From: Candidatus Binatia bacterium
GTDB lineage: Bacteria; Eisenbacteria; RBG-16-71-46; SZUA-252
DNA length: 64,000 nt
Direction of reading: 5' to 3'
Assembly (NCBI GenBank): GCA_035631035.1
Contig: DASQJL010000096.1
Coordinates: 1,234 to 65,233, forward strand
Positions within the stretch are counted from its first letter, which is position 1. Every line of letters starts with the position of its first letter. Below the pieces are notes generated by a model. The model saw only the letters and a list, made by a program, of their open reading frames with translations. It was not told where the DNA came from and ran no database searches. Position numbers and translations under genes: made by a program. This document shows positions 7,490 to 48,990 of this stretch, in pieces.

Positions 7490-7548
7490 TCCATCCTCCC
7501 GGGCGCCGCAGCGCTCAAGCGTAGCATGGGACGGCGCCGCCGCGGGCA

Positions 7549-26422: not shown

Positions 26423-26567
26423 GCGTCCTCCGCGGAAGGTCGGGGCGCGTTGCGGGCCCGCTGCGGTGTGCGATCCGGGGGGACGGCGGCACTCGGCGCG
26501 GAACGAGATGTCCATCAATTCTAGCATACGTGCGCCGCACGCCGACGCGACGGGAAAACGCTCCGGG

Positions 26568-33860: not shown

Positions 33861-34363
33861 GGCTCGTCCGCGGTCGGTCCATAGATCGAGGGCACCTTGC
33901 CTCCCGCCATGCGGAGGTAGATGGAGAACTGCCCTCGATGGTGGATCTGATCGTGGAGCAGGAACCAGCAGACGTTCATGCGCGGGATGTCGCCCATCTG
34001 TTTCGGGCCGACGAAGAAGCGGACCGTCTCTTGAAGTTTCTCCTCCGGCATCGACCGGATCAGGTTGCCGAACTCGCGATGGGCGTCCTCGACGGCCTCG
34101 ATCAGCTCGAACCAGGAGCTGGGCGCGGGCGGAGGGTTGCCCGAGGGGGCGCTGCTCGCAAACGCGTCGTTCATGAGCATCACGCCCAGGCCGCGTTCCA
34201 GCTTGAAGACCCAGGCCAGCTCGCGCGCGGTCTTCGACATGGCGTGGGGCCGGAGATCCAGCTTGTCCTCGGGGTAGGCGTGGAGGATACGCATGGTGCG
34301 CTGGTGCTCGTCTTCGTAGACGGCCAGGAACTGCTCTTTATGGGAATGGGTGATGGTCGCCAT
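33851..34363 (-). CDS. DinB/YfiT-like (DinB_2) four-helix-bundle metalloprotein
   Basis: DinB-superfamily His triad pattern (H...HxxxH: LLHDQIHHRGQ). Confidence 0.75.
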   Translation of the reverse strand: MATITHSHKEQFLAVYEDEHQRTMRILHAYPEDKLDLRPHAMSKTARELAWVFKLERGLGVMLMNDAFASSAPSGNPPPAPSSWFELIEAVEDAHREFGNLIRSMPEEKLQETVRFFVGPKQMGDIPRMNVCWFLLHDQIHHRGQFSIYLRMAGGKVPSIYGPTADEPWM

Positions 34364-34476
34364 GGGGCAGGCTCCTAACGCCGCGCCCGGGGCGCGGACG
34401 GGAAGAGACTAGTTCGCGATCGATCGGAGCCGGGGGCTGCTCCCGGGTCGGAATCGGATCGTAACTCGATTGTCGC

Positions 34477-35061
34477 CTATGGGCGGGGCGGCTTGGAAGC
34501 GGGATAGAGGGTGCCCACCTGGCGCTCCCGATGGGCCGCGAACAGCGTTCGTTCGACCGCTCGCGCCGTGACGTCGAGCTCCGCCGCCACGCCCCGAAGC
34601 ACGTGGAGGAACTGGAACCACTGATCGAGGGTGAGCCCGGCGCCCCGGGCATTGCCCCGCACGGCGCCCATCGCGTGCAGCAGCTGCCACACGCGAATGT
34701 CGATCACGCCGTAGCGCCCGGGCTCGAGCATAGTGAGCACCGCGGAGGCCGAGGGGGCGGAGACGCCCCTCAGCGAGAGCAGGCGCTCGAAGCGCTCCCG
34801 CTCCTCCACGCTCCGGATCGCCGCTTCCGTGGCGGTGCGGACGCGGCGCGCGCCGTTTTCGCGGACGAGTCCCGTGGATCGCGGGGATTTCCAGCGGCAG
34901 ATCCGGATCAGCTCCCCCCTCGTGAGGTAGCCGCGGACGTTCGCGGGACGCACCGCTTCGATCAGGGAGGAAGTCGCCGGGTCCTCGACGGCGATCATCC
35001 GCTCCCGCACGAGCGCGATCAGGGAAGGTTCGGGGCGCGAGCCTGCGATCACGCCCCGCAT
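34477..35061 (-). CDS. hypothetical protein (third gene of HipA-like operon)
   Basis: 194-aa ORF with protein-like composition, starting 6 nt after the DUF3037-like gene stop. Confidence 0.45.
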   Translation of the reverse strand: MRGVIAGSRPEPSLIALVRERMIAVEDPATSSLIEAVRPANVRGYLTRGELIRICRWKSPRSTGLVRENGARRVRTATEAAIRSVEERERFERLLSLRGVSAPSASAVLTMLEPGRYGVIDIRVWQLLHAMGAVRGNARGAGLTLDQWFQFLHVLRGVAAELDVTARAVERTLFAAHRERQVGTLYPASKPPRP

Positions 35062-35067
35062 CCGCGG

Positions 35068-35466
35068 TCAGCTTCGCCGCGGCGTCCGGACCATCGTCTC
35101 GAGCAGGTGCTCGAGGAGTGCGGCCGGGTCCGTGCAGGCGCCGGTGTGGACGGCCGAGGTCTGGATGACCGTGCTGCGCGGCGCGGTGAGCCAGCGGAAG
35201 CGCTCCCGCTTCGAGAGGGCCCCGATCGGTCCCGCGGAGGGGCCGCCCGCGCAGATCGCGGGGAGGGTCGCCAAGTGGGCGCGGATCGTCGCAAGGTCGG
35301 CGCCGGGGTCCAGCGCGAGCAGCCGGCCCTCGTCCAGCTCGATGCGGGCCTCCAGGAAGTCGCTCGCCGGGCAGGAGACGATCGCTCCGGCATTGATGAA
35401 CTCCTCCCGCTCCACCTTCGGGACCACGCGGACGATGGCGTAATCGTACGGGCTAGGCTCGGGCAC
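35068..35466 (-). CDS. DUF3037-like small protein (partner of HipA-like kinase)
   Basis: N-terminal YDYAIVRVVPKVEREEFINAGAIV resembles the DUF3037 family. Overlaps the kinase gene by 14 nt. Confidence 0.6.
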   Translation of the reverse strand: MPEPSPYDYAIVRVVPKVEREEFINAGAIVSCPASDFLEARIELDEGRLLALDPGADLATIRAHLATLPAICAGGPSAGPIGALSKRERFRWLTAPRSTVIQTSAVHTGACTDPAALLEHLLETMVRTPRRS

Positions 35467-36217
35467 GGATCGCCTCTTCCAGGAAGGGCCGCGGCGTCTC
35501 CAGGCGGCGCGCCAGATACTTCACGTAGGCATCGCGATGCTCGGCGGCCGTCGCGAAGGGTGCGTCGACCAGCCAGGTGTCGGGGACCAGCGAGACGATG
35601 CGCCGCAGCTCGTCCGGAGTGACCCGCTTGTCCAGCGCGGCATCGGCTTCCTCCATCCGGGAGGCCGCGGGAAGGAGCACGTGGTCGCGAATCATCGGGA
35701 AGGGATCGCGGCTCCGCTCCAGCCAGTGCTCCCACGTGTGGTGGAAGTAGAGCGCCGATCCGTGGTCGATGAGCCACGTGCGCCGGTGCCACACGAGCAG
35801 GTTGGTATTGCGTGGCGTCCGGTCGATGTTCGTGACGAAGGCGTCGAACCAGACCACCAGGGATGCGAACCCCGGATCCGGCTTCTCCGCCACGGGATCG
35901 AACATGATCGAGCCCGGCAGGTAGTCGAGCGCCAGGTTCAGCCCGCCGCTCGCGCGGATCAGGTCCTGGATCTCCGGGTCGGGTTCCGTGCGCGCGAGGT
36001 CGGGGTCCAGCTCCACGAACACGATCTCCGGAACGGGAAGCCCGGCGGCGCGCGCGATCTCGCCGCACACGAGCTCCGCGATCAGCGCCTTGGCGCCATG
36101 TCCCGCGCCGCGGAACTTGAGCACGTACATGCCGTCGTCGTCGGCTTCGACGATCGCGGGCAGCGAGCCTCCCTCGCGGAGCGGGGTCACGTAGCGCGTG
36201 GCCGCGACCGTGCGCAT
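35453..36217 (-). CDS. HipA-like kinase family protein
   Basis: N-terminal TRYVTPLREGGSLPAIVEADDDGMYVLKFRGAGHG and the catalytic-loop-like VTNIDRTPRNTNLLVW...IDHGSALY. Confidence 0.7.
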   Translation of the reverse strand: MRTVAATRYVTPLREGGSLPAIVEADDDGMYVLKFRGAGHGAKALIAELVCGEIARAAGLPVPEIVFVELDPDLARTEPDPEIQDLIRASGGLNLALDYLPGSIMFDPVAEKPDPGFASLVVWFDAFVTNIDRTPRNTNLLVWHRRTWLIDHGSALYFHHTWEHWLERSRDPFPMIRDHVLLPAASRMEEADAALDKRVTPDELRRIVSLVPDTWLVDAPFATAAEHRDAYVKYLARRLETPRPFLEEAIRARA

Positions 36218-36234
36218 CTAGAGGGCGCGCCGCG

Positions 36235-36705
36235 TCATCGGCCCAGGAACCTGTCGATCTGCCGGCGGTGCCGCAGCACGTGCACGATCGCGTGCTCGAA
36301 GAGCTGCTCGAAGTCATAGATCGGTCCCCAGCGAACGGTCATCTTCATCTCGGTGCATTCCTGGTCCGTCATCTCCCAGTGGCCCTCGAGGGTCTCGGCC
36401 ATGTAGGCGAGCGTCTTCCGCATCTCGGCCGGCGTATCGGCGCGGCGGACCGGTTCGTCCCACCGGACCACGGGCTCCTTCTTCCAGTGCGTCCGCATGT
36501 AGTTCGCGTAGCCGTACCCGGCTCGGACCACGTGCCTCATGATGGTCTGGATCGAGCGGCAATCCTCGTCCTGGGTCGTGGTGTCGCGGACCCGATCGAA
36601 CTCCTCATCCGAGATCCCCTCCAGAATCCGGATCAGCTCCGCCGAGGCGCGCTCGTACTCGTCCATCAACGCGCCGACGGGTCCCTTCCTGTAGGTCTTG
36701 GCCAC
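36235..36705 (-). CDS. DinB/YfiT-like (DinB_2) protein
   Basis: GTG 4 nt after GGAGG, at residue 117 of the track ORF. Conserved His in IMRHVV and EHAIVHVLRHR. Confidence 0.7.
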   Translation of the reverse strand: MAKTYRKGPVGALMDEYERASAELIRILEGISDEEFDRVRDTTTQDEDCRSIQTIMRHVVRAGYGYANYMRTHWKKEPVVRWDEPVRRADTPAEMRKTLAYMAETLEGHWEMTDQECTEMKMTVRWGPIYDFEQLFEHAIVHVLRHRRQIDRFLGR

Positions 36706-36901
36706 GGCTCCTCCGCAAGGTGGTGTGTGGGCGGCGATTCTGGCCCAGGAACCGGCCGGAAGCCAAGGGCTGCTTCCAGCCATGGCCCTTCCCGGCGGTG
36801 AAGAATTCTCTGAGCGCGCCGATACCTTGGTAGCGCGCCGGGGGCCGGGGCTCCGCGTGGCGCGCCCTCGCCGCGACCCACCCTGCAACCGGAGCGAAAC
36901 C

Positions 36902-38173
36902 GTGGGCAAGAAGCACCGCTCGTTCAGGATATCGCTGCCCCCCGCCGTGGGCCGGATCGCGAAGGGGGCCCTCAAGAGCAAGCTCCTCATGGTGCTCGTG
37001 GGACTCTTCGTGCTCGGGTTCATCGCGGGAAAGCAGTCCGAGCCCGATCCCACCGGCGCGCCGTTCGAGGAGTTGTTCGAGAACCTGAGCGTCGTATCCT
37101 ACCGCGACTCTCCCTCGGACTCGGCCTCGCACTTCATGGTCGAGCTGTCCGCGCGCGGCAAGGTCTTCCGCGAGTACGACGTGGACGAGCAGCGTTTCGT
37201 GGAGCCCGCCCGCGGCCGCGACTACCGGCGCATGATCGGCGCCACTCGCTATGAGCCGCTCGTCGTGCGCGGCCACGTGGACCGCGGCTTCTGGCTGGAG
37301 CTGTCCAACCAGAAGAGCCCCGAGATCCTGCCCGACCAGTTCCAGGAGATGTACCAGACCACGCTGGACTACGTGAAACCGGTGTCGGTCATCGCCTCGA
37401 TCGCGGGGACGCTCTCCGGCTATTCCGTCGGATACCGCGCCGGCACGTGGGGCACCTCGCTCGCCAATCCCGCCGTGCAGAAGCGGGTGCTGTCGACCGC
37501 GGGCGTCGGGCGGATGATCACGCGCGAGGCCTGGCGCCGCGTGCTCCTGGAGCCCGTGGTGATGGGGCACGAGAGCGACCCCGAGCGGTTCGCCGCGGCG
37601 CGCGAGACCCAGCGGATCTACACGAACTTCTTCCGGCTCGCGCTGGCCGACAGCAACGACTTCATCCATGACGAGGCCCGGCGGCTCGACGCCGCGGGCT
37701 ACACGCGCGAGGCGATCGCCATGCTGGAGTTCACCTACTCGGCGCTGCGAGCGGCCGACGACACCGTGCACCTCGAGAGCGCCGATTTCCGGGCCGTCGA
37801 GGAATGGGCCAGCCTGATCGCGCACCGCGGCCACTGGGCGCCCACGTCGATCCCCGCATCGGGCGAGGCGCGCGTGCGCTACCTGGGGACCCTGGCCTAC
37901 TACGGCCTGACGCCGGTCGCCGACGACGCGCATCGGGTCTGGGTCGGGCCGCGCGTGCTGGTGAAGGATGGCGAGGAGGAGGGGTTCGTGGCGGACGAGA
38001 TCCCCTCGATCCGCGCCGCGTGTCCCTTGACGTGGCAGGACTGGCTGCGCCACGACACCACCGGGATGAGCAGCAACGAGTGGACGGCGCAGTGGATGAG
38101 GGAATCGAAGCAGCTCGCGCAGATGGTGAGTTTCGGAAAGCAGGTCGTGCGGCAGATGCAGCCCGCGCGGTAG
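36902..38173 (+). CDS. membrane-anchored hypothetical protein
   Basis: GTG start; basic N-terminus, then one TM (LLMVLVGLFVLGFIAG), then a roughly 380-aa soluble domain with no recognised motif. Confidence 0.55.
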   Translation: MGKKHRSFRISLPPAVGRIAKGALKSKLLMVLVGLFVLGFIAGKQSEPDPTGAPFEELFENLSVVSYRDSPSDSASHFMVELSARGKVFREYDVDEQRFVEPARGRDYRRMIGATRYEPLVVRGHVDRGFWLELSNQKSPEILPDQFQEMYQTTLDYVKPVSVIASIAGTLSGYSVGYRAGTWGTSLANPAVQKRVLSTAGVGRMITREAWRRVLLEPVVMGHESDPERFAAARETQRIYTNFFRLALADSNDFIHDEARRLDAAGYTREAIAMLEFTYSALRAADDTVHLESADFRAVEEWASLIAHRGHWAPTSIPASGEARVRYLGTLAYYGLTPVADDAHRVWVGPRVLVKDGEEEGFVADEIPSIRAACPLTWQDWLRHDTTGMSSNEWTAQWMRESKQLAQMVSFGKQVVRQMQPAR

Positions 38174-38184
38174 GGCCCCGTCCG

Positions 38185-38568
38185 CTACGCGTCGCCCGTG
38201 GGAATGATCCCACGTCGCTCCACCATCAAGATCACGGTGCGCTCCGGGGCGCGCGTCCGGTGCACCACGCCCCTGGGCACCACGAATCCCTGCTGCGGCG
38301 ACAGCTCCACCGTGCGGCTCTCCAGGTCGATCAGCAGCCGGCCCTCCACCACGAAGAAGAACTCGTCCTCCTCGTCATGCTTGTGCCAGTGGTATTCCCC
38401 TCGGATCACGCCGAGTCGCACGACCGAATCGTTCACCTGGCAGAGGGTCTGGTTGTACCAGGGATGGGTGCAGGCGGCGGCGAGCGCGGAAACGTCGATC
38501 AGCTCCAAGGGCTCATAGCGCACGTCCATGTGCGTGTCGTAAGGGTAGTTCTTGGGGTCGTCGGCCAT
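38185..38568 (-). CDS. cupin-domain protein
   Basis: Cupin motifs GEYHWHKHDEEDEFFFVVEG and VVPRGVVHR. ATG 6 nt after GAGGAG. Divergent from lexA with a shared 101-bp intergenic region. Confidence 0.75.
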   Translation of the reverse strand: MADDPKNYPYDTHMDVRYEPLELIDVSALAAACTHPWYNQTLCQVNDSVVRLGVIRGEYHWHKHDEEDEFFFVVEGRLLIDLESRTVELSPQQGFVVPRGVVHRTRAPERTVILMVERRGIIPTGDA

Positions 38569-38629
38569 GCTCCACTCCTCGGGAAAAGGACAAGAACGGC
38601 TGAGGATACTCCTCGGCTGAGCCGCCCCC

Positions 38630-38658
38630 TTGACAACTGCACAAACGTTCACTATCTT
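38630..38658 (+). promoter_or_regulatory. lexA promoter (TTGACA-N17-TATCTT) with embedded LexA box TGCACAAACGTTCA (38638-38651)
   Basis: Consensus -35, 17-nt spacer, -10. The spacer contains a TGCAC-N4-GTKCA imperfect palindrome. The -10 ends 11 nt before the lexA ATG, so the transcript is near-leaderless. Confidence 0.55.
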
Positions 38659-38669
38659 CCTTTTCAGCC

Positions 38670-39428
38670 ATGAAGAAGAAGCCCAACCCCAGCGGGGCCC
38701 GGGGAAAGCGGCCCCCCACGCGCACGCCCTCTCCCGAGGCGATCCTCTCCTACATCGAGGAGTCGCTTCGCGATACGGGCCGCCCGCCCACGATTCGGGA
38801 AATCGGAGCCGTCTTCGGGATCGCCTCCACCAATGGAGTCCGCTACCACCTCGATAAGCTGGAGCGGGAAGGCAGGATCCGGCGGGATCGATTCACCAGT
38901 CGAGGCATCGAAGTACAGTTGGCCGGCGGGCGCGGCGCGACGCATATGGACACCTTGCCCTCCATGTCGCCCGCGTTTCGCCGAGCCAACGTTCCTCGAG
39001 GGACTGTGGCTGGCGTCCCCGGTGGCCTTGAACGGGATCTCCTTGAAGTCCCCCTCCTGGGCCACGTCGCCGCCGGCGCGCCCCTCCTCGCCGAAGAGCA
39101 CATCGAGGACACCCTGACCCTCGACCCGGCGATGGTGCGGCCCGGCGGCAAGCACTTCGCCCTGCGGGTGCGCGGCGACAGCATGAAGAACGCCGGGATC
39201 CTGGACGGCGACGTGGTCATCGTCCGGCACGACACTCCCGTGAAGAGCGGCGAGATCGCCGTCGTGCTGATCGGCGACGAAGCCACCGTGAAGCGCTTCT
39301 TTCCGCGGCGCGACAAGCTCCTGCTATTTCCTGAAAACGAAGACTACGAACCGATCGAAGTGCGTCCGGCCGATCCCGACGTGCGGGTGGCGGGCAAGGT
39401 GGTGGGTGTATTTCGGAGGCTCGGCTGA
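38670..39428 (+). CDS. lexA: LexA repressor (S24 peptidase)
   Basis: HTH (PPTIREIGAVFGIASTNGVRYHL), cleavage-site region VAAG, catalytic Ser in GDSM and Lys in VKRF. Lineage-specific basic N-terminal tail. Confidence 0.95.
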   Translation: MKKKPNPSGARGKRPPTRTPSPEAILSYIEESLRDTGRPPTIREIGAVFGIASTNGVRYHLDKLEREGRIRRDRFTSRGIEVQLAGGRGATHMDTLPSMSPAFRRANVPRGTVAGVPGGLERDLLEVPLLGHVAAGAPLLAEEHIEDTLTLDPAMVRPGGKHFALRVRGDSMKNAGILDGDVVIVRHDTPVKSGEIAVVLIGDEATVKRFFPRRDKLLLFPENEDYEPIEVRPADPDVRVAGKVVGVFRRLG

Positions 39429-39472
39429 TGCTCCATGCGCGATCGTTTCCATCCGAGAGAGACGGCTACTTC

Positions 39473-39724
39473 ATGATCGAGTCCATCCACGACCCCATCG
39501 AGGTCATCACCATGTTCTCCGGCGGAACGATGAAGCCGATCCGCTTCCGCTGGAAGAACAAGACCGTGCGCATCGCCAAGGTGACGGGGGACTGGGTCCG
39601 GCACGAGGGGGAGAACAAGGTCCACTACTTCGCGCTTCTCGCCGACAACGCGGACTACTACGAGATCCGCTACGACGCGCGCGAGATGACCTGGCAGCTC
39701 ACGCGGGTGTGGATGGAGGGGTAG
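39473..39724 (+). CDS. small Lys-rich protein co-transcribed with lexA (83 aa; hypothetical)
   Basis: Begins 45 nt after the lexA stop in a frame contiguous with a TGATG overlap ORF. Sequence MIESIHDPIEVITMFSGGTMKPIRFRWKNKTVRIAKV...; a high Lys/Ile content in a 70% GC genome argues for real coding. Confidence 0.6.
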   Translation: MIESIHDPIEVITMFSGGTMKPIRFRWKNKTVRIAKVTGDWVRHEGENKVHYFALLADNADYYEIRYDAREMTWQLTRVWMEG

Positions 39725-40193
39725 CCCCGCTCCACGTCCACGAGCCGAGCAGGCGCTCACGCCGGCGCCCGGGCCAGCGGCGGAACTCCTCGGACGGAAC
39801 GAACCCGAGCAGGCTGTCGCAGTCCTGGCGCCGGATGAAGCGGACCCACCCCGACAGCGGTTCCCGAACGAGAACGACACGGCCGGCGAAGATCTCCTCC
39901 AGCGCTCCGATGACGGCGCCGAGGATGGCTCCATCGGACGCCGCGCCCCAGACCAGGATCTTCTCGGCGGGACCGGGAGGGACGCCGTCGTCGTAGGCGA
40001 TCGTCGCCCCCTCCTCGTAGAGGTCGGCGCGAAGCTCATGTCCGGGGCGGCCCGGCACCGGCAGACGGACCGACATGTGGACCGTCATGGAATCCACGCT
40101 CGGGTCCAGCTCCGGATGAAGGGCCCGTAGACGCGCGGCCAGGAGCGTCGCGACCCGGCGGGTCTGCTCGGTCAGGGTGAGCGCGTGCTTCAA
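39699..40193 (-). CDS. hypothetical protein, candidate only (TTG start overlapping HAD stop)
   Basis: High-GC3 minus-strand ORF downstream of the HAD gene in a TTGA arrangement; not Arg/Pro-dominated. Alternative ATG at 40088. Convergently overlaps the 3-prime end of the lexA-operon small gene by 26 nt. Confidence 0.35.
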   Translation of the reverse strand: MKHALTLTEQTRRVATLLAARLRALHPELDPSVDSMTVHMSVRLPVPGRPGHELRADLYEEGATIAYDDGVPPGPAEKILVWGAASDGAILGAVIGALEEIFAGRVVLVREPLSGWVRFIRRQDCDSLLGFVPSEEFRRWPGRRRERLLGSWTWSGATPPSTPA

Positions 40194-40939
40194 GGGATCG
40201 CGCCCTCGTCGACATGCCCCGGGGCATGTCGCAGCTCGGACAGGCTGCGCACGATGCGATCGGGGCGTACGTCGCTGCCCGATGGGATCCCCGCGCCTCC
40301 TCGGTCGATCCAGATGGCGTAGATCCCGAGGCGCTGCGGGGCGGCGACGTCCCATTCGAGATTGTCCCCGGCCATCCAGGTCTCGTGCGGCGCGGCCTGC
40401 AGCTCGTCCAGCGCGATCCGGTACACGCGCGGATCGGGCTTGCCGTAACCCAGCTCCCCCTCGATCAGAACCAAATCGAAGAGCTCGGCCAGCTGAAAGC
40501 GCACCACCTTGCTCCTCTGGGCAGCCGCGGCGCCGTTCGTGAGGAGGGCCAGCCTGCGGCCGCTCTGCTTGAACCAGCGCACGGTCTCGATCGCATCCTC
40601 CAGCGGCTGGAGGCCCAGGTGCCGCTGGGCGCGATAGTGCTCCGCGATCTTCTCGGCCAGCTCCGGCGACTCGAGCCCGATCTCCACGAGCGAAGCGCGT
40701 ACGACCTCCCGCCGCGCGGCATCCAGGTCCAGGCGCCCCTCCCGATGGCGCTCGGGATCGGACCAGAACCACGCGCGCGTTTTCTCGATGACGGCGTGGA
40801 GCGCGGAGGGATCGACCGCGCCCAGCTCGTCGCGGTGGGCGCGGCAGGCCTCCAACCAGCAGTGGGAGACGTTGCCGCTGTCGTCGAGGATCGTGTCGTC
40901 GAGATCGAGGAGGACGGCCTTGGGAAGGGCTCCGGTCAC
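40190..40939 (-). CDS. HAD-superfamily hydrolase
   Basis: Motif I LLDLDDTI, motif II LTNG, motif IV GDNLEWD. Confidence 0.85.
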   Translation of the reverse strand: MTGALPKAVLLDLDDTILDDSGNVSHCWLEACRAHRDELGAVDPSALHAVIEKTRAWFWSDPERHREGRLDLDAARREVVRASLVEIGLESPELAEKIAEHYRAQRHLGLQPLEDAIETVRWFKQSGRRLALLTNGAAAAQRSKVVRFQLAELFDLVLIEGELGYGKPDPRVYRIALDELQAAPHETWMAGDNLEWDVAAPQRLGIYAIWIDRGGAGIPSGSDVRPDRIVRSLSELRHAPGHVDEGAIP

Positions 40940-40949
40940 GGGCGCCGTC

Positions 40950-41750
40950 TCAAGCCCTGCTCCCGCGCACGGCCCACGCGCGCGCGATCAGGTGGATCGA
41001 GCCGTCCGCCTCGACCGGCAGCCGCGAGCGGATTCGGTCCCGCAGCGCGCCCCGGCGCGCCTCTTCCAGCGACATGGCGTAGCCCGGCGCGGGGCCCTGG
41101 CCGCCGAGGAAGGGGGACCAGTAGTCGTCGAAATCGCGAAACACGGTCGGGACGTCGATCGCACGCGTCCGGACGTCGCTCAGGTGCCCTCCGGAAAATA
41201 CATCGGCGAGCGCCTCGGGGTGGCAGAGCGGGAATCGGGTCCCTTCGTCCAGCTCGCGGGCCGCGGGATCGAGGGCGATGGCGGCGTCCCAGAAATGCCG
41301 GAGCAGCTCCATGCGCCCCGAGTAGTCCCAGACATAGGCCGCGGCGACGCCTCCGGGGCGGAGCGCGCGAGACATCTCGCCCACGGCGAGTGCCGGCTCC
41401 GGAACGAAGTTGAGGAGCAGGGCGGAAACCGCTGCGTCCACCGAGGCGTCCTCGACCGGAAGCGATCGGGCGTCGCCCACCTCGAACGTCGCGACCGTGC
41501 GCTCCCCGATGCGCGCACGGGCGTAGTCGACGTACGCGGGGGAGGCGTCGATGCTCCGCACCGACCGGGGGCTGGAGCGATCGAGAAGGGTCTGGGTCAA
41601 GGCACCGGTGCCGCACCCGACGTCGAGCCAGGCCCTGCCCGGCGGCACGTCGAGCCACGCGAGGAATTCGGGGGCCACGCGACGGCTCCATCGGCCGACG
41701 AAGGGCTCGTAGAGGTCGCCCGCGGCCCAGACGTCTTCGGGGGTCATCAC
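40950..41750 (-). CDS. class I SAM-dependent methyltransferase (Methyltransf_11-like)
   Basis: Motif I LDVGCGTGALT. Divergent from dinB, with 132 bp between them. Confidence 0.85.
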   Translation of the reverse strand: MMTPEDVWAAGDLYEPFVGRWSRRVAPEFLAWLDVPPGRAWLDVGCGTGALTQTLLDRSSPRSVRSIDASPAYVDYARARIGERTVATFEVGDARSLPVEDASVDAAVSALLLNFVPEPALAVGEMSRALRPGGVAAAYVWDYSGRMELLRHFWDAAIALDPAARELDEGTRFPLCHPEALADVFSGGHLSDVRTRAIDVPTVFRDFDDYWSPFLGGQGPAPGYAMSLEEARRGALRDRIRSRLPVEADGSIHLIARAWAVRGSRA

Positions 41751-41781
41751 GACAGTTTACTTGCCCCTTGCGGGCGCCATC

Positions 41782-41810
41782 TTGACAACTGCACAAATGT
41801 GCAATATCGT
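41782..41810 (+). promoter_or_regulatory. dinB promoter (TTGACA-N17-TATCGT) with embedded perfect LexA box TGCACAAATGTGCA (41790-41803)
   Basis: The 16 nt CTTGACAACTGCACAAA are identical to the lexA promoter. The spacer holds a perfect palindrome TGCACA-AA-TGTGCA. Confidence 0.55.
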
Positions 41811-41882
41811 AGTCGTGTGACCTGCTTGAGGCGCCTCGCCAGTCCTCGATCGTGGAACGCAGAGCCCTGGGAGTGACCTTCC

Positions 41883-43154
41883 GTGCGGATCGTGGCGCAC
41901 ATCGACATGGATGCCTTTTTCGCCTCGGTCGAGGAGAAGCTGAACCCGCGGCTCGCGGGAAAGCCGCTGGTCGTGGGAGGGTCCAGGGACAGCCGCGGGG
42001 TCGTCTCGGCGGCCAACTACGCGGCGCGTCCGTACGGGATCCACGCCGGCATGCCGATTGCCGAGGCGGTGCGCCTCTGTCCTGAAGCGGCCTTCATCGA
42101 AGGCGACCCCAGGAAGTACGTTCACATCTCTCTCCAGATCCTCGACACGCTGAAAGACTTCACCCCCATCGTCGAGCCGTTCAGCATCGACGAGGCGTTC
42201 CTCGACCTGACCGCGGTGGAGCGTCTTCGTCCTCGAACGGAAGACGGCGACCACGAGACCTGCCTGAACGCGGCGATCCCGCTCGCCCAGGCGATCCAGC
42301 GCGCGGTGCATCGGCGCGTGGGGCTGACGGCCTCGATCGGGATCGCCCCCAACAAGTACGTCGCCAAGATGGGGAGCGGCCTCCGGAAGCCGAACGGGCT
42401 CACGGTGCTCTCGATCCGCCGCTTTCGCGAGATCTTCGAATCGAAGCCGGTCAACGAGCTGTGGGGGATCGGAGAGAAGACGGCGGCTTCGCTCGCCACA
42501 CTCGGCATCCGCACGGCGGGGCAGCTCGCCCGCTTTCCCCGGGAGTTCCTGACCTATCATTTCGGGCTGAGCGGCGATCACATGCAGGATGCCGCGCGGG
42601 GCGACGACGAATCCGAGGTGGTGCCCTACTTCGAAGGGGTGCCGGTCAAGTCGATGGGGCACGAGTACACGCTGCCGGAGGACGTGTCGGATCGCGAGCG
42701 CATCCGCGCGCACCTCCTCCGCCTGAGCGATCAGGTGGGCCGACGCCTTCGCGTCGACGGATACCTGGGCCGTGTGATCGCGGTGAAGTTCCGCAATGCG
42801 CGCTTCAAGACCACCATCCGCCAGCGCGCGCTGGCCGAGGTGACCGACGACGAGAACGTCATCTATGGCACCGCGTGCATCCTCCTCGACGAGAACTGGG
42901 ACGGAAAGCCGCTGCGCCTGGTCGGCGTCTCGGTGTCGGACCTCGTCTCGGCGCAGGGATTCCATCAGCACGATCTCTTCTCCACCGACGAGCGCCGGCG
43001 AAGAATGACCGAGGCTGCGGATTCGCTGCGGAACAAGTTCGGGGACGCGGTCCTGGTGCGGGCGGGAGCGCTGGATCATGGCGACACGCAGCGCCTCTCT
43101 CGTGAGGGAGCCAGTCGGAGTCTCGTCCGGGTCCTCGCCGACGAGCGACGATGA
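41883..43154 (+). CDS. dinB: DNA polymerase IV (Y-family translesion polymerase)
   Basis: N-terminal MRIVAHIDMDAFFASVEE with catalytic Asp, SIDEAFLD, and palm/fingers/little-finger layout. GTG start. Confidence 0.95.
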   Translation: MRIVAHIDMDAFFASVEEKLNPRLAGKPLVVGGSRDSRGVVSAANYAARPYGIHAGMPIAEAVRLCPEAAFIEGDPRKYVHISLQILDTLKDFTPIVEPFSIDEAFLDLTAVERLRPRTEDGDHETCLNAAIPLAQAIQRAVHRRVGLTASIGIAPNKYVAKMGSGLRKPNGLTVLSIRRFREIFESKPVNELWGIGEKTAASLATLGIRTAGQLARFPREFLTYHFGLSGDHMQDAARGDDESEVVPYFEGVPVKSMGHEYTLPEDVSDRERIRAHLLRLSDQVGRRLRVDGYLGRVIAVKFRNARFKTTIRQRALAEVTDDENVIYGTACILLDENWDGKPLRLVGVSVSDLVSAQGFHQHDLFSTDERRRRMTEAADSLRNKFGDAVLVRAGALDHGDTQRLSREGASRSLVRVLADERR

Positions 43155-44143
43155 GCGACCGACCCAAGATCGTGCTCGGCACCTCGGGATGGTCCTTCAA
43201 GGACTGGGTGGGGCCCTTCTATCCGCCCGGCACGAATCGGGCGCACATGCTGGACTACTACGCGGGCGAGTTCCAGGCGGTCGAGGTGAACTCCACCTAT
43301 TACCGGATTCCGCACTGGCGCACGTTCGAGGCGATCGCGAAGAAGACGCCTCCCGGGTTCGAGATCGTCGTGAAGACGCACCACGACATGACGCACCTGC
43401 GCTCCCGCGAGCCCGATCTCTACCGGGACTTCGAGCGCTCCATCCAGCCGCTGCTCGAGGCGGGGAAGCTCACGGGGATCCTCGCGCAATTCCCCTACGC
43501 GTTCCGGCGCACGCGTGAAAACGAGGAGTTTCTTCACGCCCTGCCCGACCTCCTCGGCCGATGGGTACCGCTCTTCGTGGAGTTCCGCCACCGGTCCTGG
43601 GTGGACGACGCCGTCTTTCAGGATCTCCAGAAGGAGGGCCTTGGCTACGTCAGCGTGGACGAGCCGGACCTTCCGGGCCTGGTCCCGCCGATCGCGCGCC
43701 GCACGGGGCCGATCGGGTACGTCCGCTTTCATGGCCGGAACAAGGAGAAGTGGTGGGGGGCCGAGTCGCGCGATCGAGGGGCGCCCGACGGGCCGGGAGT
43801 GAAGCGGGATGCCGCGAAGAGCGCAACGCCCGATGACAGGGGCAAGGCCCGCACGCGAGTCCGCGCCGGTGCGGACTTGGGCCCGCTCTTCAGCGGCACT
43901 CCCGACCATCCCGCCGAGGCGCCACCCTTGCCGGCTCCGCCCGCCTCCGAGCCGCGCACGTCCAGCACGCGCTACGACTGGTCCTACACCGAAGAGGAGC
44001 TGCGCGAGTGGATGGACAAGATCCGTGAGATGACGCAGCAGGCCAAGAAGACGTTCGTCTTCTTCAACAACTGCCACGTGGGGCAGGCGGCGACCAGCGC
44101 CAAGCTGATGCGGAAGCTGCTCGAGGGGGAGGGGATGCTGTGA
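43151..44143 (+). CDS. DUF72 (YecE-like) family protein with low-complexity insertion
   Basis: ATGA overlap with the dinB stop. Conserved DUF72 N-terminal motif (LGTSGWSFKDWVGPFYPPG...YY...EVNSTYY) and a C-terminal FVFFNNCHVGQA. A Pro/Ala/Arg-rich insertion of about 70 aa is present. Confidence 0.85.
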   Translation: MSDRPKIVLGTSGWSFKDWVGPFYPPGTNRAHMLDYYAGEFQAVEVNSTYYRIPHWRTFEAIAKKTPPGFEIVVKTHHDMTHLRSREPDLYRDFERSIQPLLEAGKLTGILAQFPYAFRRTRENEEFLHALPDLLGRWVPLFVEFRHRSWVDDAVFQDLQKEGLGYVSVDEPDLPGLVPPIARRTGPIGYVRFHGRNKEKWWGAESRDRGAPDGPGVKRDAAKSATPDDRGKARTRVRAGADLGPLFSGTPDHPAEAPPLPAPPASEPRTSSTRYDWSYTEEELREWMDKIREMTQQAKKTFVFFNNCHVGQAATSAKLMRKLLEGEGML

Positions 44144-44168
44144 GCCGGGGCGCGAGCGGAGCGGGGAC

Positions 44169-46676
44169 ATGACGGGCGGGGGTGTCGCGGGGGGAAGCGA
44201 TTTCGTCCACGGGCCGGGACTCTTCGACGCCGAGCGCGGCGAGCGCGGGCCGCGTTCCGGCGCTCCCGAGACCCTGGACGAGTACGAGGCGCTCCTGCAG
44301 GCGCTCACCTCGCGGGACCGTCGATTTGTCCACGGTCCCTACGGGCTCCGCCGCCGTCCGAACGAGCTGGTGCACCTGGAGCGCCTCCCGGCCCGGCCCG
44401 CCGTGTACGGCGACCTCGCCGAGCCTCTGCCGCAAGCGCTCCAGGGCGTGCTACGCGAGGCGGGCATCGAACGCCTCTACACCCACCAGGCCCAGGCGGT
44501 GGATCTCGCGCGCTCCGGCGCGAACGTCGCCGTCGCAACGGGCACCGCGTCGGGGAAGTCGCTCGCCTATCACCTGCCGATCCTCGAGCGGCTCCTCCTC
44601 CAGCCGGGCGCCACCGCGCTCTACCTGTTTCCGACCAAGGCCCTCGCCCAGGACCAGCTGCGCGGCCTCCTGCGCTTCGCCGCGGCGTCTCCAGCGCTCG
44701 GGCGCGCGCTCGCGACCGGCACCTACGACGGAGACACTCCCGGCGAGTCGCGCCGCAAGCTCCGCGAGCGCGCCAACGCGATCCTCACGAACCCCGACAT
44801 GCTCCACCAGGGGATCCTCCCGTACCACTCCCGATGGAGCCGGATCTTCTCCAACCTGCGCTACGTCGTGGTGGACGAGATGCATACCTATCGCGGCGTG
44901 TTCGGGTCCCACGTCGCCAACGTGCTCCGACGGCTGAAGCGGATCGCGCGCCACTACGGCGCCGATCCCCGCTTTCTTCTGAGCTCCGCCACCATTCGAA
45001 ATCCGCGCGAGCTGGCGGAGTCGCTGGTCGGGGAGCCGGTCCGTGTCGTGGACGAGGATGGCGCGCCCCGCGGACCCAAGCTCTTCGCGTTCTGGAATCC
45101 CAGACATGCCGGTCCCGAGCAGGCGGGCGCGCGAACCTCCACGTCGATCGAAGCCGAGCGCATCCTGGTCTCGCTCATCCGGCGGCAGGTCGCCTCGATC
45201 GCGTTCACGCGGTCGCGCGTCTCCGCCGAGCTGATCTACCGCTACGCGCGCGAGCAGCTGGAGGAGCGGGGGCGCCGCCGCGCCGAGAAGGCCGAGGGCG
45301 GGGCGGTCCCGCTCGCCGACCGGCTGAGTCCCTACCGCGGCGGCTACCTTCCCGAGGAACGGCGCGCCATCGAGCGCCGCCTCTTCGACGGGGACCTCCT
45401 CGGCGTCATCTCGACGAACGCGCTCGAGCTGGGGATCGATGTCGGGTCGCTGGACGCGGCCGTGCTCGTCGGCTTCCCCAACACCATCGCGAGCACCTGG
45501 CAGCAGGCGGGGCGCGCGGGCCGCTCGCAGGCGCCGTCGCTCGCGATCGTCGTCGCCTACGACGATCCGATCGATCAGTACCTGATGCGCCACCCCGAGT
45601 ACTTCTTCGCGCAATCGCCGGAGAGCGCCGTCGTGGATCCTTCCAACCCCTACGTGCTCGCGTCGCACCTCGCCTGCGCCGCGCACGAGCTGCCGCTCTC
45701 GCGCGCCGACGAGGTCTGGTTCGGGCCGAGGGCCGAGGCGCTCGGGCGCCTGCTGGAAGAGGAAGGCACCGTCAAGTCGCTCGACGGCCTCCGTTACTGG
45801 TCTTCGTCCGAATATCCGGCGGGGCGGGTCAACCTGCGCACCATCTCCGACGACACCTACACCATCCTCGAGCGGAAGCCCGGCGCTCCGGAAGCGGAGG
45901 CGAGGACCCTGGCCACGGTGGACGCGATCAGCGCGCCGGAGCTGATCTACCCCGAGGCGATCTATCTGCACGAGGGAGACACCTGGTTCGTGCGCGAGCT
46001 GGACCTGCAGCAGAAGGTCGCCTACGTCGAGCGGCAGGAGGTGGACTACTACACGCAGCCGGTGCTGGACACGCGGCTGCGGCTGACCGAGACCCGCGAA
46101 ACGAAGCGCTGCGGCGAGTGCGAGGTGGGCCTGGGGACAGCGAACGTCTCCTGGGCCACCGTCGCCTTCAAGAAGATCCGCTTTCGGAGTCTCGATGCCA
46201 TCGGCTATCACCCGCTCGATCTCCCCCGCCTGAACCTGGACACGGTGGCGCTCTGGATCCGCCCCGACGAGTCGGCGCGCGCGGCGGTGCGCGTGAAGGG
46301 GATGAATCCCGCCGAGGGGATGTCGGGACTCCGCAATCTGCTCGTCACGCTGCTTCCGCTTCACGCCATGTGCGACCGGCCGGACCTGGGAGGCGTCCTC
46401 GACAGCGCGAACCTCGGCGAGCAGGCGATCTTCCTCTACGACCGCTACCCGGGCGGGCTGGGCTACGCGGAGCGCGGCTACGCCATCGTGGACGACCTCC
46501 TGCGCGCGACGCTCCGCATGATCGAGGACTGCCCCTGCGAGATCGGGTGTCCCTCGTGCGTCGGCCTCCCGGTCCTCCGCCCCGCGCAGCAGCAGGACTA
46601 CGACCTGCACGGCGGCTGGCCCATCCCGAACAAGGCCGCCACGGAGGCGCTGCTCCGGCGCCTTCTCGGGGCCTGA
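44169..46676 (+). CDS. DEAD/DEAH-box helicase with C-terminal DUF1998 zinc-binding domain (MrfA/YprA-like)
   Basis: Walker A TGTASGKS, DEAH-like VVVDEMH, motif VI QQAGRAGR, and the C-terminal CxxC...CEIGCPSC cluster of DUF1998. Confidence 0.9.
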   Translation: MTGGGVAGGSDFVHGPGLFDAERGERGPRSGAPETLDEYEALLQALTSRDRRFVHGPYGLRRRPNELVHLERLPARPAVYGDLAEPLPQALQGVLREAGIERLYTHQAQAVDLARSGANVAVATGTASGKSLAYHLPILERLLLQPGATALYLFPTKALAQDQLRGLLRFAAASPALGRALATGTYDGDTPGESRRKLRERANAILTNPDMLHQGILPYHSRWSRIFSNLRYVVVDEMHTYRGVFGSHVANVLRRLKRIARHYGADPRFLLSSATIRNPRELAESLVGEPVRVVDEDGAPRGPKLFAFWNPRHAGPEQAGARTSTSIEAERILVSLIRRQVASIAFTRSRVSAELIYRYAREQLEERGRRRAEKAEGGAVPLADRLSPYRGGYLPEERRAIERRLFDGDLLGVISTNALELGIDVGSLDAAVLVGFPNTIASTWQQAGRAGRSQAPSLAIVVAYDDPIDQYLMRHPEYFFAQSPESAVVDPSNPYVLASHLACAAHELPLSRADEVWFGPRAEALGRLLEEEGTVKSLDGLRYWSSSEYPAGRVNLRTISDDTYTILERKPGAPEAEARTLATVDAISAPELIYPEAIYLHEGDTWFVRELDLQQKVAYVERQEVDYYTQPVLDTRLRLTETRETKRCGECEVGLGTANVSWATVAFKKIRFRSLDAIGYHPLDLPRLNLDTVALWIRPDESARAAVRVKGMNPAEGMSGLRNLLVTLLPLHAMCDRPDLGGVLDSANLGEQAIFLYDRYPGGLGYAERGYAIVDDLLRATLRMIEDCPCEIGCPSCVGLPVLRPAQQQDYDLHGGWPIPNKAATEALLRRLLGA

Positions 46677-46709
46677 CGCGCGCCGCGCCGCGCGCCGGAG
46701 ACAGGCCCG

Positions 46710-47714
46710 ATGCTCTCCAAGACACTCCGGGACAGGATCGGGGGGCTGCTCCGGCAAGGCGCTCTGGACATTCCGGTCCCGCACGGGAACGGAGATTCGA
46801 ATGGCCATGCGGCCGCGCCCCCGCTGTTCACCCCCGAGCCGCGTCGCCACTTCGTCGCGACGGGGATCGAGGAGATCCTTCCCGGCGGCGTGATCGAGAC
46901 CGCGCAGGGGACCGTCTTCGCGCATGAGCGGCTCTACACCGATCTGGGAGAGCGTCCCGTACCCCTCCTCCGCCGGCTGGCCGAGCTCTGCGCCTACCCC
47001 GGGTGCGCGCCGGAGCGCCATGGAACGGGTCCACACTGGGTCGAGATCCCCGGCGTCGACTGCCCCTATCCCGCGCTCCCGGAACGCGCGCGCGCGCGCC
47101 GGCGCCGGCCGCGGGATCTGGCGGAGGCGACGGGCCTTCACGACCCTCCGGAGCAGGGGATGTTTCGCCGGTTCGGATACCGGCGCGTGCTCTACTTGGA
47201 CATCGAAACGTGCGGGCTCTCGGCGGCGCCGGTGTTCCTGGTCGGGCTCTGCATGGTGGGGGAGCGGAATCTCATCCTGCGCCAGCTCTTCGCGCGGGAC
47301 TACGCCGAGGAGCGGGCGCTCCTGGTGGAGCTCAAGCGCCTGGCCGGGGAGCACGACTTCCTCGTGACCTTCAACGGCAAGGCGTTCGACGTGCCCTTTC
47401 TTCGCGACCGCGCCGTGCATCACCGCCTCGATCCGCCGATCGCGATGCCCCACCTGGACCTGCTCTGGATGGCGCGCCGGCGCTGGAAGGATCTCCTTCC
47501 GGACTGCAAGCTGAAGACGATCGAATGGCGGGTGCTCCGGCGGAGGCGCGCGGGCGACGTGGGAGGATCGGAGATCCCCGGGCTCTACCACGACTACGTG
47601 AAGCGGGGCGAGGCCCACCGGCTGCTTCCGGTGTTCCATCACAACCTGCTCGACGTGGTCGCGATGGTGGAGCTGACGCCGGTCATCTTCGACCCGGATG
47701 TCGGGATCTACTAG
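46710..47714 (+). CDS. RNase-H-like / DnaQ-type 3-5 exonuclease (MrfB/YprB-like)
   Basis: DEDDh-like motifs: YLDIETCGLS (Exo I), TFNGKAFDVPFL (Exo II), HHNLLDVVAM (Exo III). Immediately downstream of the MrfA-like helicase. Confidence 0.8.
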   Translation: MLSKTLRDRIGGLLRQGALDIPVPHGNGDSNGHAAAPPLFTPEPRRHFVATGIEEILPGGVIETAQGTVFAHERLYTDLGERPVPLLRRLAELCAYPGCAPERHGTGPHWVEIPGVDCPYPALPERARARRRRPRDLAEATGLHDPPEQGMFRRFGYRRVLYLDIETCGLSAAPVFLVGLCMVGERNLILRQLFARDYAEERALLVELKRLAGEHDFLVTFNGKAFDVPFLRDRAVHHRLDPPIAMPHLDLLWMARRRWKDLLPDCKLKTIEWRVLRRRRAGDVGGSEIPGLYHDYVKRGEAHRLLPVFHHNLLDVVAMVELTPVIFDPDVGIY

Positions 47715-47769
47715 AGAGCGGCGACGCGAGCGAGTGATCGAGGAGCGGGAGAGGAGCGGGACGGGGTCC

Positions 47770-48342
47770 CTAGGAGGAGCTTCGCGCGCCCCACATCTCG
47801 CGCGTGAGCTCGAAGCGGAGCGAGCCGGGATCGGACGGGGCCTCGTTCGCCCGCACGAAGCCGTTCTTCTCGAGGACCCGCTGGGAAGGGCGCCCCTCCG
47901 GCAGCGTCTCGGCGACGACGCGGCGTACGCGCGGGTCGCTAAAGGCCCACGCCAGCGTGGCCCCCACCGCCTCCGTGGCCAGCCCTCTCCCGTAGTACTC
48001 CTCCACGATGGAGTACCCGATCTCGATCGTCCCGCGGGGGTCGGGCGGTCCCTTGAAGCCGCCCCCTCCGATCAGGAGCGGCCGCCGCTCCGGCGCGCCC
48101 GCCTGGGGCCGCACCAGCCAGGACCAGCCCAGGAACCCGACCGCCTCGGGGTGCTCCTCCAGCCGGCGGCAGAGGAAGTCGCGCCCCTCCTGGTCGTTCT
48201 CCCCGGGGGGCCAGGCCCCGTGGATCTCGGCCCCCAGCAGACGGGCCAGCTCGGCGCGGTCGGCCGCCTCCGCCCGGGCGATGGCCGGGGTGGAGGCGAT
48301 CAGGAAGAGGCGCTCGGTTTGGAGTTGGATCGACTCGGTCAC
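47770..48342 (-). CDS. GNAT family N-acetyltransferase (RimJ/RimL-like)
   Basis: Acetyl-CoA binding motif region RVVAETLPEGRPSQRVLEKNGF. Confidence 0.8.
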   Translation of the reverse strand: MTESIQLQTERLFLIASTPAIARAEAADRAELARLLGAEIHGAWPPGENDQEGRDFLCRRLEEHPEAVGFLGWSWLVRPQAGAPERRPLLIGGGGFKGPPDPRGTIEIGYSIVEEYYGRGLATEAVGATLAWAFSDPRVRRVVAETLPEGRPSQRVLEKNGFVRANEAPSDPGSLRFELTREMWGARSSS

Positions 48343-48453
48343 GACATTATCCTTTCATGCGTACCGAATCTCGGCAACCCAGGAACCACGGCAGGTCCTC
48401 GTTCCATCGAAGTACGATCGCGTCACCCCACAACCCGGAAGGAGTCTTCCCCC

Positions 48454-48990
48454 ATGAAACGCCATCTGCTTGCATTGGGAGTCCTCGCTCTCGCCATGTC
48501 GGCGGCCCCCGCGCTGGCCGACGACGCCGCCACCCCGGCCCAGCCGGACAACGCAGCCCAGATGGCCCAGCCGGCCGCGGCCCAGCACGTGGTCTACGCC
48601 GCCAAGGACCTCAAGTGGATGGATGGCCCCCCGGGTCTCCCCGCGGGCGCCAAGTTCACGGTTCTCGCCGGAAACCCGATGGCGCCGGGGATCTACACGA
48701 TTCGCGCGATGTTCCCCGCCGGCTACAAGATCCCGGCGCACTTCCACGCCGCCGATGAGAACGTCACCGTGATCGCCGGCGAGTTTGGGATCGGCATGGG
48801 CGACGCCCTGGACATGGCGAAGGGCGATGTCATGAGCTCGGGCGGCTTCACGTCGCTTCCGGCCGGCATGCACCACTTCGCCTGGACCAAGAAGGGCGCC
48901 ACGGTCCAGATCCACGGCATGGGGCCGTTCTCGATCACCTACCTGAATCCTTCCGAGGATCCGCGGAACGCCAAGGAAGCCGCCAAGTAA
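48454..48990 (+). CDS. secreted cupin-domain protein
   Basis: GGAAGGAG about 8 nt upstream of the ATG; signal peptide MKRHLLALGVLALAMSAAPALA; cupin His motifs (PAHFHAADE, MHHFAW). Confidence 0.75.
   Translation: MKRHLLALGVLALAMSAAPALADDAATPAQPDNAAQMAQPAAAQHVVYAAKDLKWMDGPPGLPAGAKFTVLAGNPMAPGIYTIRAMFPAGYKIPAHFHAADENVTVIAGEFGIGMGDALDMAKGDVMSSGGFTSLPAGMHHFAWTKKGATVQIHGMGPFSITYLNPSEDPRNAKEAAK

Follow-up and report, generated by a model that had tools for sequence, protein, structure and literature searches.

Predicted LexA operators in the promoter spacers of lexA and of a dinB-DUF72-mrfA-mrfB unit in Candidatus Eisenbacteria

Introduction

The LexA proteins of Bacillus and the Actinobacteria recognize the Gram-positive Cheo box, CGAAC-RNRY-GTTCG, in operators that overlap the promoter. 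The LexA box of Fibrobacter succinogenes is TGCNC-N4-GTGCA and was reportedly determined by Mazon and colleagues in 2004, by electrophoretic mobility shift assay and footprinting in that one cultured species. To our knowledge, F. succinogenes is the only organism in which this box has been defined experimentally. Here we analyzed a 64,000-nt stretch of contig DASQJL010000096.1 (assembly GCA_035631035.1), hereafter called the window, in which an earlier note made from the sequence alone had claimed a regulon of lexA and a dinB-DUF72-mrfA-mrfB unit, with TGCAC-N4-GTGCA LexA operators embedded in sigma-70-type promoter spacers. The conservation of the box in related genomes of Candidatus Eisenbacteria supports this predicted regulon.

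Balneolaeota and Bacteroidetes are usually placed with Fibrobacter. The LexA motif of the Balneolaeota is the direct repeat TTACACATATTTTWTACATA (PMC7739468), and non-canonical SOS-repressor motifs, GGA-N5-TCC and CTAA-N5-TTAG, have been reported for the Bacteroidetes (PMC8565304). Operons that join lexA, a gene for an ImuB-C protein, and dinB have been described, for example with the GSU0042-like proteins of Geobacter (Aravind, Anand and Iyer 2013, PMC3765255). The MrfAB (YprAB) proteins of Bacillus subtilis are a mitomycin-C repair pair (bioRxiv 10.1101/426304; PMC7797055; PMC11194089).

Results

Direct reading of the window located two promoters at the coordinates given in the earlier note, with the consensus -35 hexamers, 17-nt spacers, and -10 hexamers that it had listed. 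The lexA promoter (38630..38658, plus strand) comprises TTGACA at 38630-38635, the spacer ACTGCACAAACGTTCAC, and TATCTT at 38653-38658; the dinB promoter (41782..41810, plus strand) comprises TTGACA at 41782-41787, the spacer ACTGCACAAATGTGCAA, and TATCGT at 41805-41810. These spacers carry the box as TGCACAAACGTTCA in the lexA promoter and as TGCACAAATGTGCA in the dinB promoter. Predicted LexA operator 1 (38638..38651, no strand assigned) is a hybrid, TGCAC-AAAC-GTTCA, with one mismatch to the palindrome, and predicted LexA operator 2 (41790..41803, likewise without a strand) is the perfect palindrome TGCAC-AAAT-GTGCA. Both operators lie between the -35 and -10 hexamers, the 17-nt spacing of which falls within the 16-18 nt of sigma-70-type promoters. 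The exact stretch common to the two promoters, CTTGACAACTGCACAAA, is 17 nt long (38629-38645 and 41781-41797) rather than 16 nt as first counted, and it has two matches at up to three mismatches in the window versus 0.03 expected. Taken as a whole, the promoter repeat spans 34 nt with 85% identity between lexA and dinB; the identity is limited to the functional core, and the flanks are unlike.

TGCAC-N4-GTGCA occurs in the 64-kb window once as a perfect match (41790) and once with one mismatch (38638), and at no other position with up to one mismatch, while the matches with two mismatches are at chance level (18 versus 19.3 expected). A position-specific scoring matrix (PSSM) built from the related sites described below scored operator 2 at 24.5 bits and operator 1 at 22.8 bits, a contrast with the next best position in the 64 kb, at 2.5 bits, that bears out the earlier claim of no other copies. 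A sigma-70 consensus scan of positions 38000-48600 (10.6 kb) returned these two promoters alone, each matching at 10 of 12 positions, versus 0.3 expected; the two promoter-like sites of this region coincide with the two motif matches of the window. The same scan found no minus-strand promoter-like site. A motif scan for the full Cheo box found none in the window, and an Rfam search of the dinB leader matched no RNA element.

The earlier note had proposed to check whether the palindrome is conserved upstream of orthologous genes, and it is. Our comparison covered 80 genome loci (L001-L080), which were retrieved via LexA alignment and peptide patterns that include STNGVRY. These loci and the closest LexA homologues are labelled mostly Candidatus Eisenbacteria (Eiseniibacteriota), and closed chromosomes are among them. 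Upstream of lexA, 71 of the loci carry a perfect TGCAC-N4-GTGCA and 7 a box with one mismatch, and 2 are cut at the contig end; the box was found in every locus that could be assessed, in addition to the one-mismatch site of the window itself. It sits within 362 nt upstream of lexA (median, 18 nt) and is retained down to a LexA identity of approximately 40% with the window protein; it is also retained upstream of dinB wherever that gene is separated from lexA. The 1.016 Mb of these loci contain 87 perfect boxes, all of which are located upstream of lexA (76), dinB (8), or the DUF6504 gene (3), whereas chance alone would give approximately 1 at their base composition.

The placement of the box is also conserved, with a -35 TTGAC 2-3 nt ahead of it and a TAnnnT -10 that begins 1 nt past it in the related loci. 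The ten bases of the dyad are invariant across clades, while the central N4, the distance from the -35 to the box, and the sequence of the -10 vary. The ends of the spacer follow the pattern R..Y, the first position being A or G in 123 of 124 symmetrised sites, and clade 1 shows hardly any variation in the N4 (AAAT) or the flanks. L001-L003 carry operator 1 of the window unchanged, and L004-L006 have a perfect TGCACAAACGTGCA at the same place. Because the hybrid is identical in these three loci and its form is kept in approximately 25 clade-2 genomes before a lexA-adjacent gene, random decay does not account for it.

Two further arrangements of the box were seen in other clades. In a third clade (L032, L036, L037, L040, and L079), lexA is preceded by two operators spaced 23 bp apart, the first of them in the promoter spacer and the second immediately past the -10, where transcription is expected to start. 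The same layout with one mismatch was seen in L033, L041-L045, L049, and L055. In clade 2 (L048-L080, e.g., L075:8680-9171), a gene encoding a 152-158 aa homologue of IS200-like Y1 (HUH) transposases is located right after lexA in approximately 25 genomes. This gene is present in a single copy, keeps the HxH motif, shows 52-88% identity, and diverges in step with its host, and the hybrid TGCAC-N4-GTTCA and a ribosome-binding site lie ahead of it in every case. Judged by these sequence traits, it resembles a transposase-family gene that was domesticated and came under the control of LexA.

With the Fibrobacter box, the Eisenbacteria box shares the 14-bp dyad, the half-site letters (TGCAC fits TGCNC), and the place in lexA's own promoter. 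It differs in the fixed A at position 4, in the R..Y rule for the spacer ends, in the recurrent TGCAC-N4-GTTCA hybrid, and in having been derived by comparative genomics in an uncultured phylum. The match to Fibrobacter that the earlier note had drawn holds for the two sites of the window, which fit TGCNC-N4-GTGCA perfectly at 41790 and with one mismatch at 38638. Its term FCB-type (for the Fibrobacterota-Chlorobiota-Bacteroidota group) is too broad because the motifs of Balneolaeota and Bacteroidetes, which likewise serve SOS repressors of lexA and translesion polymerases, are wholly unlike the Eisenbacteria box in letters and architecture; the box is not general to the groups associated with Fibrobacter. 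NCBI files the source phylum under candidate phyla and not under the FCB group; Eisenbacteria are presumably placed near Fibrobacterota, which the NCBI lineage does not reflect. A Verrucomicrobia LexA paper that we checked for a motif table naming Fibrobacter contained none.

The Cheo box has the same 5-4-5 geometry, a spacer flanked by a purine and a pyrimidine, and an overlap with the promoter; however, its half-site is CGAAC, whereas that of the Eisenbacteria box is TGCAC (positions 1 and 3 differ). The earlier statement that the operators are not Cheo boxes is right as to the half-sites. It does not extend to the geometry, which is Cheo-like, or to the lexA site, a recurrent Cheo-like hybrid in which the GTTCA half has the GTTC core.

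LexA itself is encoded at 38670..39428 (plus strand, start ATG at 38670) and is a 252-aa protein with a winged-helix DNA-binding domain and an S24 autopeptidase domain (Pfam PF01726, E=2.9e-14; PF00717, E=6.2e-33); it scored 182.7 bits against the cutoff of 110.95 for the NCBIfam model TIGR00498. Its motifs VAAG (A135-G136), GDSM (S171), and VKRF (K208) align to A84-G85, S119, and K156 of the Escherichia coli protein, and neither the cleavage site nor the Ser/Lys dyad varies across 35 aligned homologues. The recognition helix STNGVRY is invariant in 35 homologues gathered by overall similarity. Ala42, Glu44, and Glu45 of E. coli LexA contact bases in the 3JSO complex. The alignment replaces them with Gly56, Arg58, and Tyr59 in the window protein, which fits a box other than CTGT-N8-ACAG. 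The lexA -10 is 6-11 nt from the conserved ATG in the window (11 nt) and in L004-L028, with no Shine-Dalgarno sequence, and we therefore predict that the lexA mRNA is leaderless or nearly so. The start codon is supported by the conservation of a K/R/P-rich N-terminal extension (MKKKPNP...).

The promoter and box were also used as a DNA template. A scan of metagenome contigs for CTTGAC-N3-TGCACAWWYGTKCA yielded at least 120 contigs (L081-L200) with a GC content of 0.34-0.69. Among the matches listed, the first gene after the template was lexA in 34 cases, the DUF6504 gene in 15, and dinB in 8, and the others included yebG, umuD-like S24 genes, topoisomerase III-like, DUF2461, and gyrB/parE-like genes, and a Ski2/Hel308-like helicase gene with one for a small Zn-ribbon protein. 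This is a typical, recognisable SOS repertoire. Full-length LexA proteins recovered through the DNA motif alone had STNGVRY in 6 of 7 cases. For the low-GC contigs, a protein search and cluster lookup gave only the labels 'Eisenbacteria' and 'bacterium'. Among the matches listed, one recurrent promoter, CTTGACACATGCACAAATGTTCATCTAGACT, was always ahead of a topoisomerase-like gene.

The unit behind operator 2 comprises four genes. dinB (41883..43154, plus strand) encodes DNA polymerase IV (Pol IV) of 423 aa with the Pfam domains IMS, IMS_C, and IMS_HHH and a score of 307.9 against the cutoff of 256 for NF002677; it starts with GTG, with GGGAG upstream. The DUF72 gene (43151..44143, plus strand) overlaps dinB by 4 nt and encodes a TM1631-like TIM barrel (PF01904, E=2.7e-58; PDB 1VPQ, TM1631, E=6.9e-54), a predicted DNA-repair endonuclease; it follows dinB in most of the loci that cover the region downstream of dinB. 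An 835-aa superfamily 2 helicase of the MrfA/YprA family is encoded at 44169..46676 (plus strand) and contains DEAD, Helicase_C, WHD_HRQ1, and MZB (E=2.4e-21) domains; its residues 67-802 match B. subtilis YprA (PDB 6ZNP) with E=4.3e-187. The last gene of the unit (46710..47714, plus strand) encodes a MrfB-like exonuclease of the DnaQ superfamily (334 aa; RNase_H_2, E=3.4e-33) that matches MrfB (PDB 8UN9) with E=6.1e-18. The 33-nt gap between mrfA and mrfB and the combination of a helicase carrying the MZB (DUF1998) Zn domain with a DEDDh exonuclease identify a MrfAB pair.

An acetyltransferase gene on the minus strand comes next, which places the end of the unit at 47714. We ruled out an open reading frame (ORF) at 47698-48990 as a fifth gene of the operon, since the calls for the same contig give the acetyltransferase gene and then a 178-aa DUF4437 gene in its place. 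Gene calls on an independent assembly of this contig agree with those of the window.

As with the B. subtilis pair, the genes of mrfA and mrfB are adjacent and co-directional; the helicase matches over its full length and the exonuclease in its core. The Eisenbacteria pair differs in lying inside a predicted LexA-controlled dinB operon. The papers listed whose full text matched MrfA or MrfB together with LexA reported no LexA control of mrfAB in their titles or abstracts, and a YprA-family survey made no mention of SOS or DinB.

The small protein that the earlier note had left unnamed after lexA can now be assigned to DUF6504. Its gene (39428..39724, plus strand, 98 aa) has a start that overlaps the lexA stop by 1 nt, and the protein passed the Pfam PF20114 cutoff narrowly (26.7 against 24.2); its sequence ends in ...TRVWMEG, with a conserved C-terminal Trp. 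DUF6504 is encoded directly after lexA in most related loci, with 79-98% identity. Since its size, C-terminal Trp, and lexA/dinB context fit, it probably corresponds to the ImuB-C domain that occurs as a standalone protein in the lexA-dinB operons reported earlier (PMC3765255). There, a small ImuB-C-type protein is encoded with Pol IV and LexA in one damage-response operon; its counterpart here would be DUF6504, of approximately 100 aa. The Eisenbacteria operon further includes DUF72 and mrfAB, neither of which is mentioned in that paper. A literature search on DUF6504 found no paper. A weak match to Y1 transposases within the DUF6504 gene (E=0.044) was in another reading frame and was dismissed.

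The order lexA-DUF6504-dinB-DUF72-mrfA-mrfB is conserved throughout the phylum. L005, L016-L019, L021-L024, L026-L028, and others contain a tight co-directional cluster with one box before lexA and no divergent block, in which the DUF6504 stop is approximately 10 nt from the dinB start. In the window, L002-L004, and L006, a divergent block that contains a HAD gene separates DUF6504 from dinB, and dinB has its own promoter-operator. In the window, this block (39699..41747, minus strand) consists of a 164-aa ORF, a HAD hydrolase gene (40190-40939), and a SAM methyltransferase gene (40950-41747), as supported by Pfam and the calls for the same contig; the methyltransferase gene is within the block in the window and L003. 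The 164-aa ORF (39699-40193, minus strand) matched no family, overlaps the 3' end of the DUF6504 gene by 26 nt, and was called on the independent assembly.

Detached parts of the operon always carry their own box in the related loci. dinB is apart from DUF6504 with its own box in L007, L014, and L029 as well, and the boxes before dinB in L002-L004, L006, L007, L013, L014, and L029 are all perfect except that of L002, which is TGCACAAATGTTCA. DUF6504 is detached with its own box in L008, L011, and L013, and L013 has a third box before dinB. We conclude that a single ancestral operon led by lexA was split here by the inserted divergent block and that a separate copy of the promoter-operator kept dinB under the control of LexA. 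'Island', the term used in the earlier note, does not apply: a foreign or mobile island was ruled out by the flat GC content of approximately 0.70, the phylum-wide synteny, and the lack of tRNA or Rfam features.

The gene identities proposed in that note (cupin, LexA, HAD, methyltransferase, Pol IV, DUF72, MrfA-like, and MrfB-like) were all upheld by Pfam, NCBIfam, and PDB matches. The Cupin_2 gene assigned by Pfam (38185-38568, minus strand) and the methyltransferase-HAD genes do exist as divergent neighbours of the two promoters, but they are not conserved neighbours. Since most related loci lack them and the sigma-70 scan returned no promoter-like site on the minus strand, they are unlikely to be members of the regulon; the divergent block is probably outside it.

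The taxonomic label of the source DNA conflicts with those of its relatives. The LexA and DUF6504 proteins of the window are exactly NCBI HYJ33582.1 and HYJ33583.1, labelled Candidatus Binatia, whereas the near-identical syntenic locus L003 (dinB 96%, mrfA 95%) bears the Eisenbacteria label; further close relatives in the same catalogue of soil metagenome-assembled genomes (MAGs) are labelled Omnitrophota, Bacteroidota, and Limnocylindrales. This conflict suggests mis-binning or mislabelling in soil MAG sets. Because L003 carries the Eisenbacteria label, we treated the window as eisenbacterial.

Upstream of the cluster, at approximately 33850-38200 (gene calls of L201), there are two DinB/DinB_2-family genes, which are YfiT-like and do not encode Pol IV, a HipA_2 and DUF3037 pair, a NUDIX gene, and a second methyltransferase gene; none has a LexA box. 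Elsewhere, the window encodes a Lon protease, two large M16 (insulinase-type) peptidases, and an S8 subtilase with a C-terminal FlgD_ig domain, jointly listed at 12214-14925 (plus), 4625-8656 (minus), 54860-57625 (plus), and 24683-26620 (minus). Many long ORFs of this 70% GC window matched no Pfam family, several of them probably being overlapping artefacts.

Discussion

Our preferred reading, to which we assign a probability of roughly 0.85, is that LexA dimers in both promoter spacers exclude RNA polymerase and thereby repress lexA-DUF6504 and dinB-DUF72-mrfA-mrfB, and that RecA-stimulated self-cleavage relieves this repression. A dimer of LexA (38670-39428) would bind each 14-bp box through its winged-helix domain, with STNGVRY as the recognition helix, and since the box fills the spacer between the -35 and the -10, bound LexA would keep RNA polymerase out. 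Two units would be shut off, lexA-DUF6504, in which lexA would be autoregulated, and dinB-DUF72-mrfA-mrfB. Upon DNA damage, RecA filaments on single-stranded DNA would stimulate LexA to cleave itself at Ala135-Gly136 through the Ser171/Lys208 dyad, and both promoters would open. The products would be Pol IV, a putative damage-recognition adaptor (the ImuB-C-like DUF6504), the TM1631-like putative endonuclease, and the MrfAB helicase-exonuclease.

Several points weigh against this reading. Binding, cleavage, and expression were deduced from sequence, and the organisms are all uncultured. The invariance of STNGVRY in L001-L080 is partly built in because the peptide pattern used for retrieval contains it, and the PSSM was trained on sites picked by the motif itself, which makes it a measure of contrast and not an independent discovery. 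The lexA operator of the window has one mismatch and may be bound more weakly. The inducing arm is assumed because recA is not in the window; none was seen among the window ORFs examined, in a survey that was incomplete. Moreover, many loci encode lexA together with DUF6504, for which DNA binding is predicted, and co-occurrence alone therefore cannot name LexA as the binder. The palindrome might then be bound by a regulator other than LexA, either DUF6504/ImuB-C or an unlinked factor, with lexA merely one of its targets. DNA binding by DUF6504/ImuB-C has been predicted (PMC3765255), and in most loci of clades 1 and 3 the DUF6504 gene is linked to lexA; in clade 2 (L048-L080), however, a perfect box precedes lexA, and no DUF6504 gene was detected in most of the loci. 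LexA dimers occupy Cheo-type boxes with the same 5-4-5 dyad geometry, the box accompanies lexA in 78/78 assessable loci, and the genes downstream, namely dinB, umuD-like, and yebG, are classical LexA targets. We consider a binder other than LexA very unlikely.

Alternatively, the shared sequence might be a strong promoter template, duplicated or constrained, with a spacer palindrome that has no operator function. Promoter copying could explain the conservation of the -35, the spacer length, and the -10, as well as the nearly invariant N4 and flanks of clade 1, but it is the dyad that stays fixed across clades while the parts around it and within it vary. The second box of clade 3 is downstream of the -10 and outside any spacer, the hybrid boxes of clade 2 are beside a ribosome-binding site with no visible -35, and promoter spacers do not normally show sequence conservation; we find a mere promoter template scarcely credible. 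LexA might also bind the boxes and run no damage-inducible SOS response, as a non-cleavable or otherwise-signalled regulator. Such behaviour has been proposed for some cyanobacterial LexA proteins, the altered function of which is discussed in PMC3091678, and the inducing arm through recA is assumed here. Against this, none of the 35 aligned homologues departs from the Ala-Gly cleavage site or the Ser/Lys dyad, and all of the genes predicted to be controlled have functions in DNA-damage tolerance or repair, which makes this alternative highly improbable.

If the predicted repression by LexA is accepted, a further and more speculative step, which we regard as possible but rather doubtful, is that the SOS response of Eisenbacteria is essentially one autoregulated module, lexA-ImuB-C-dinB-DUF72-mrfAB, that forms a single lesion-processing pathway, and that the hybrid boxes are intermediates between the Cheo and Fibrobacter boxes. 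Were this true, there would be a division of labour in which ImuB-C recruits, Pol IV bypasses, and the TM1631-like DUF72 nuclease and MrfAB clear bulky or cross-link adducts. DUF72 and DUF6504, both orphan families, would gain a concrete role in DNA-damage repair, and the TGCAC-N4-GTTCA hybrids would be living intermediates on the way from the Cheo box to the Fibrobacter box.

The searchable literature contained no paper on Eisenbacteria together with LexA. Our analysis proposes a phylum-wide LexA operator and a core SOS operon for this uncultured candidate phylum, the mechanism itself being ordinary. It extends the Fibrobacter-type box to approximately 80 genomes and more than 100 metagenome contigs and adds the R..Y rule for the spacer ends and the hybrid half-site. 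Membership in the regulon appears to survive a break of the operon, each detached piece having its own copy of the promoter and operator. The comparison also suggests that mrfAB can be SOS-controlled, and, with DUF72, DUF6504/ImuB-C, and MrfAB predicted to share their repressor with Pol IV, it offers a functional lead for two families without an assigned function.

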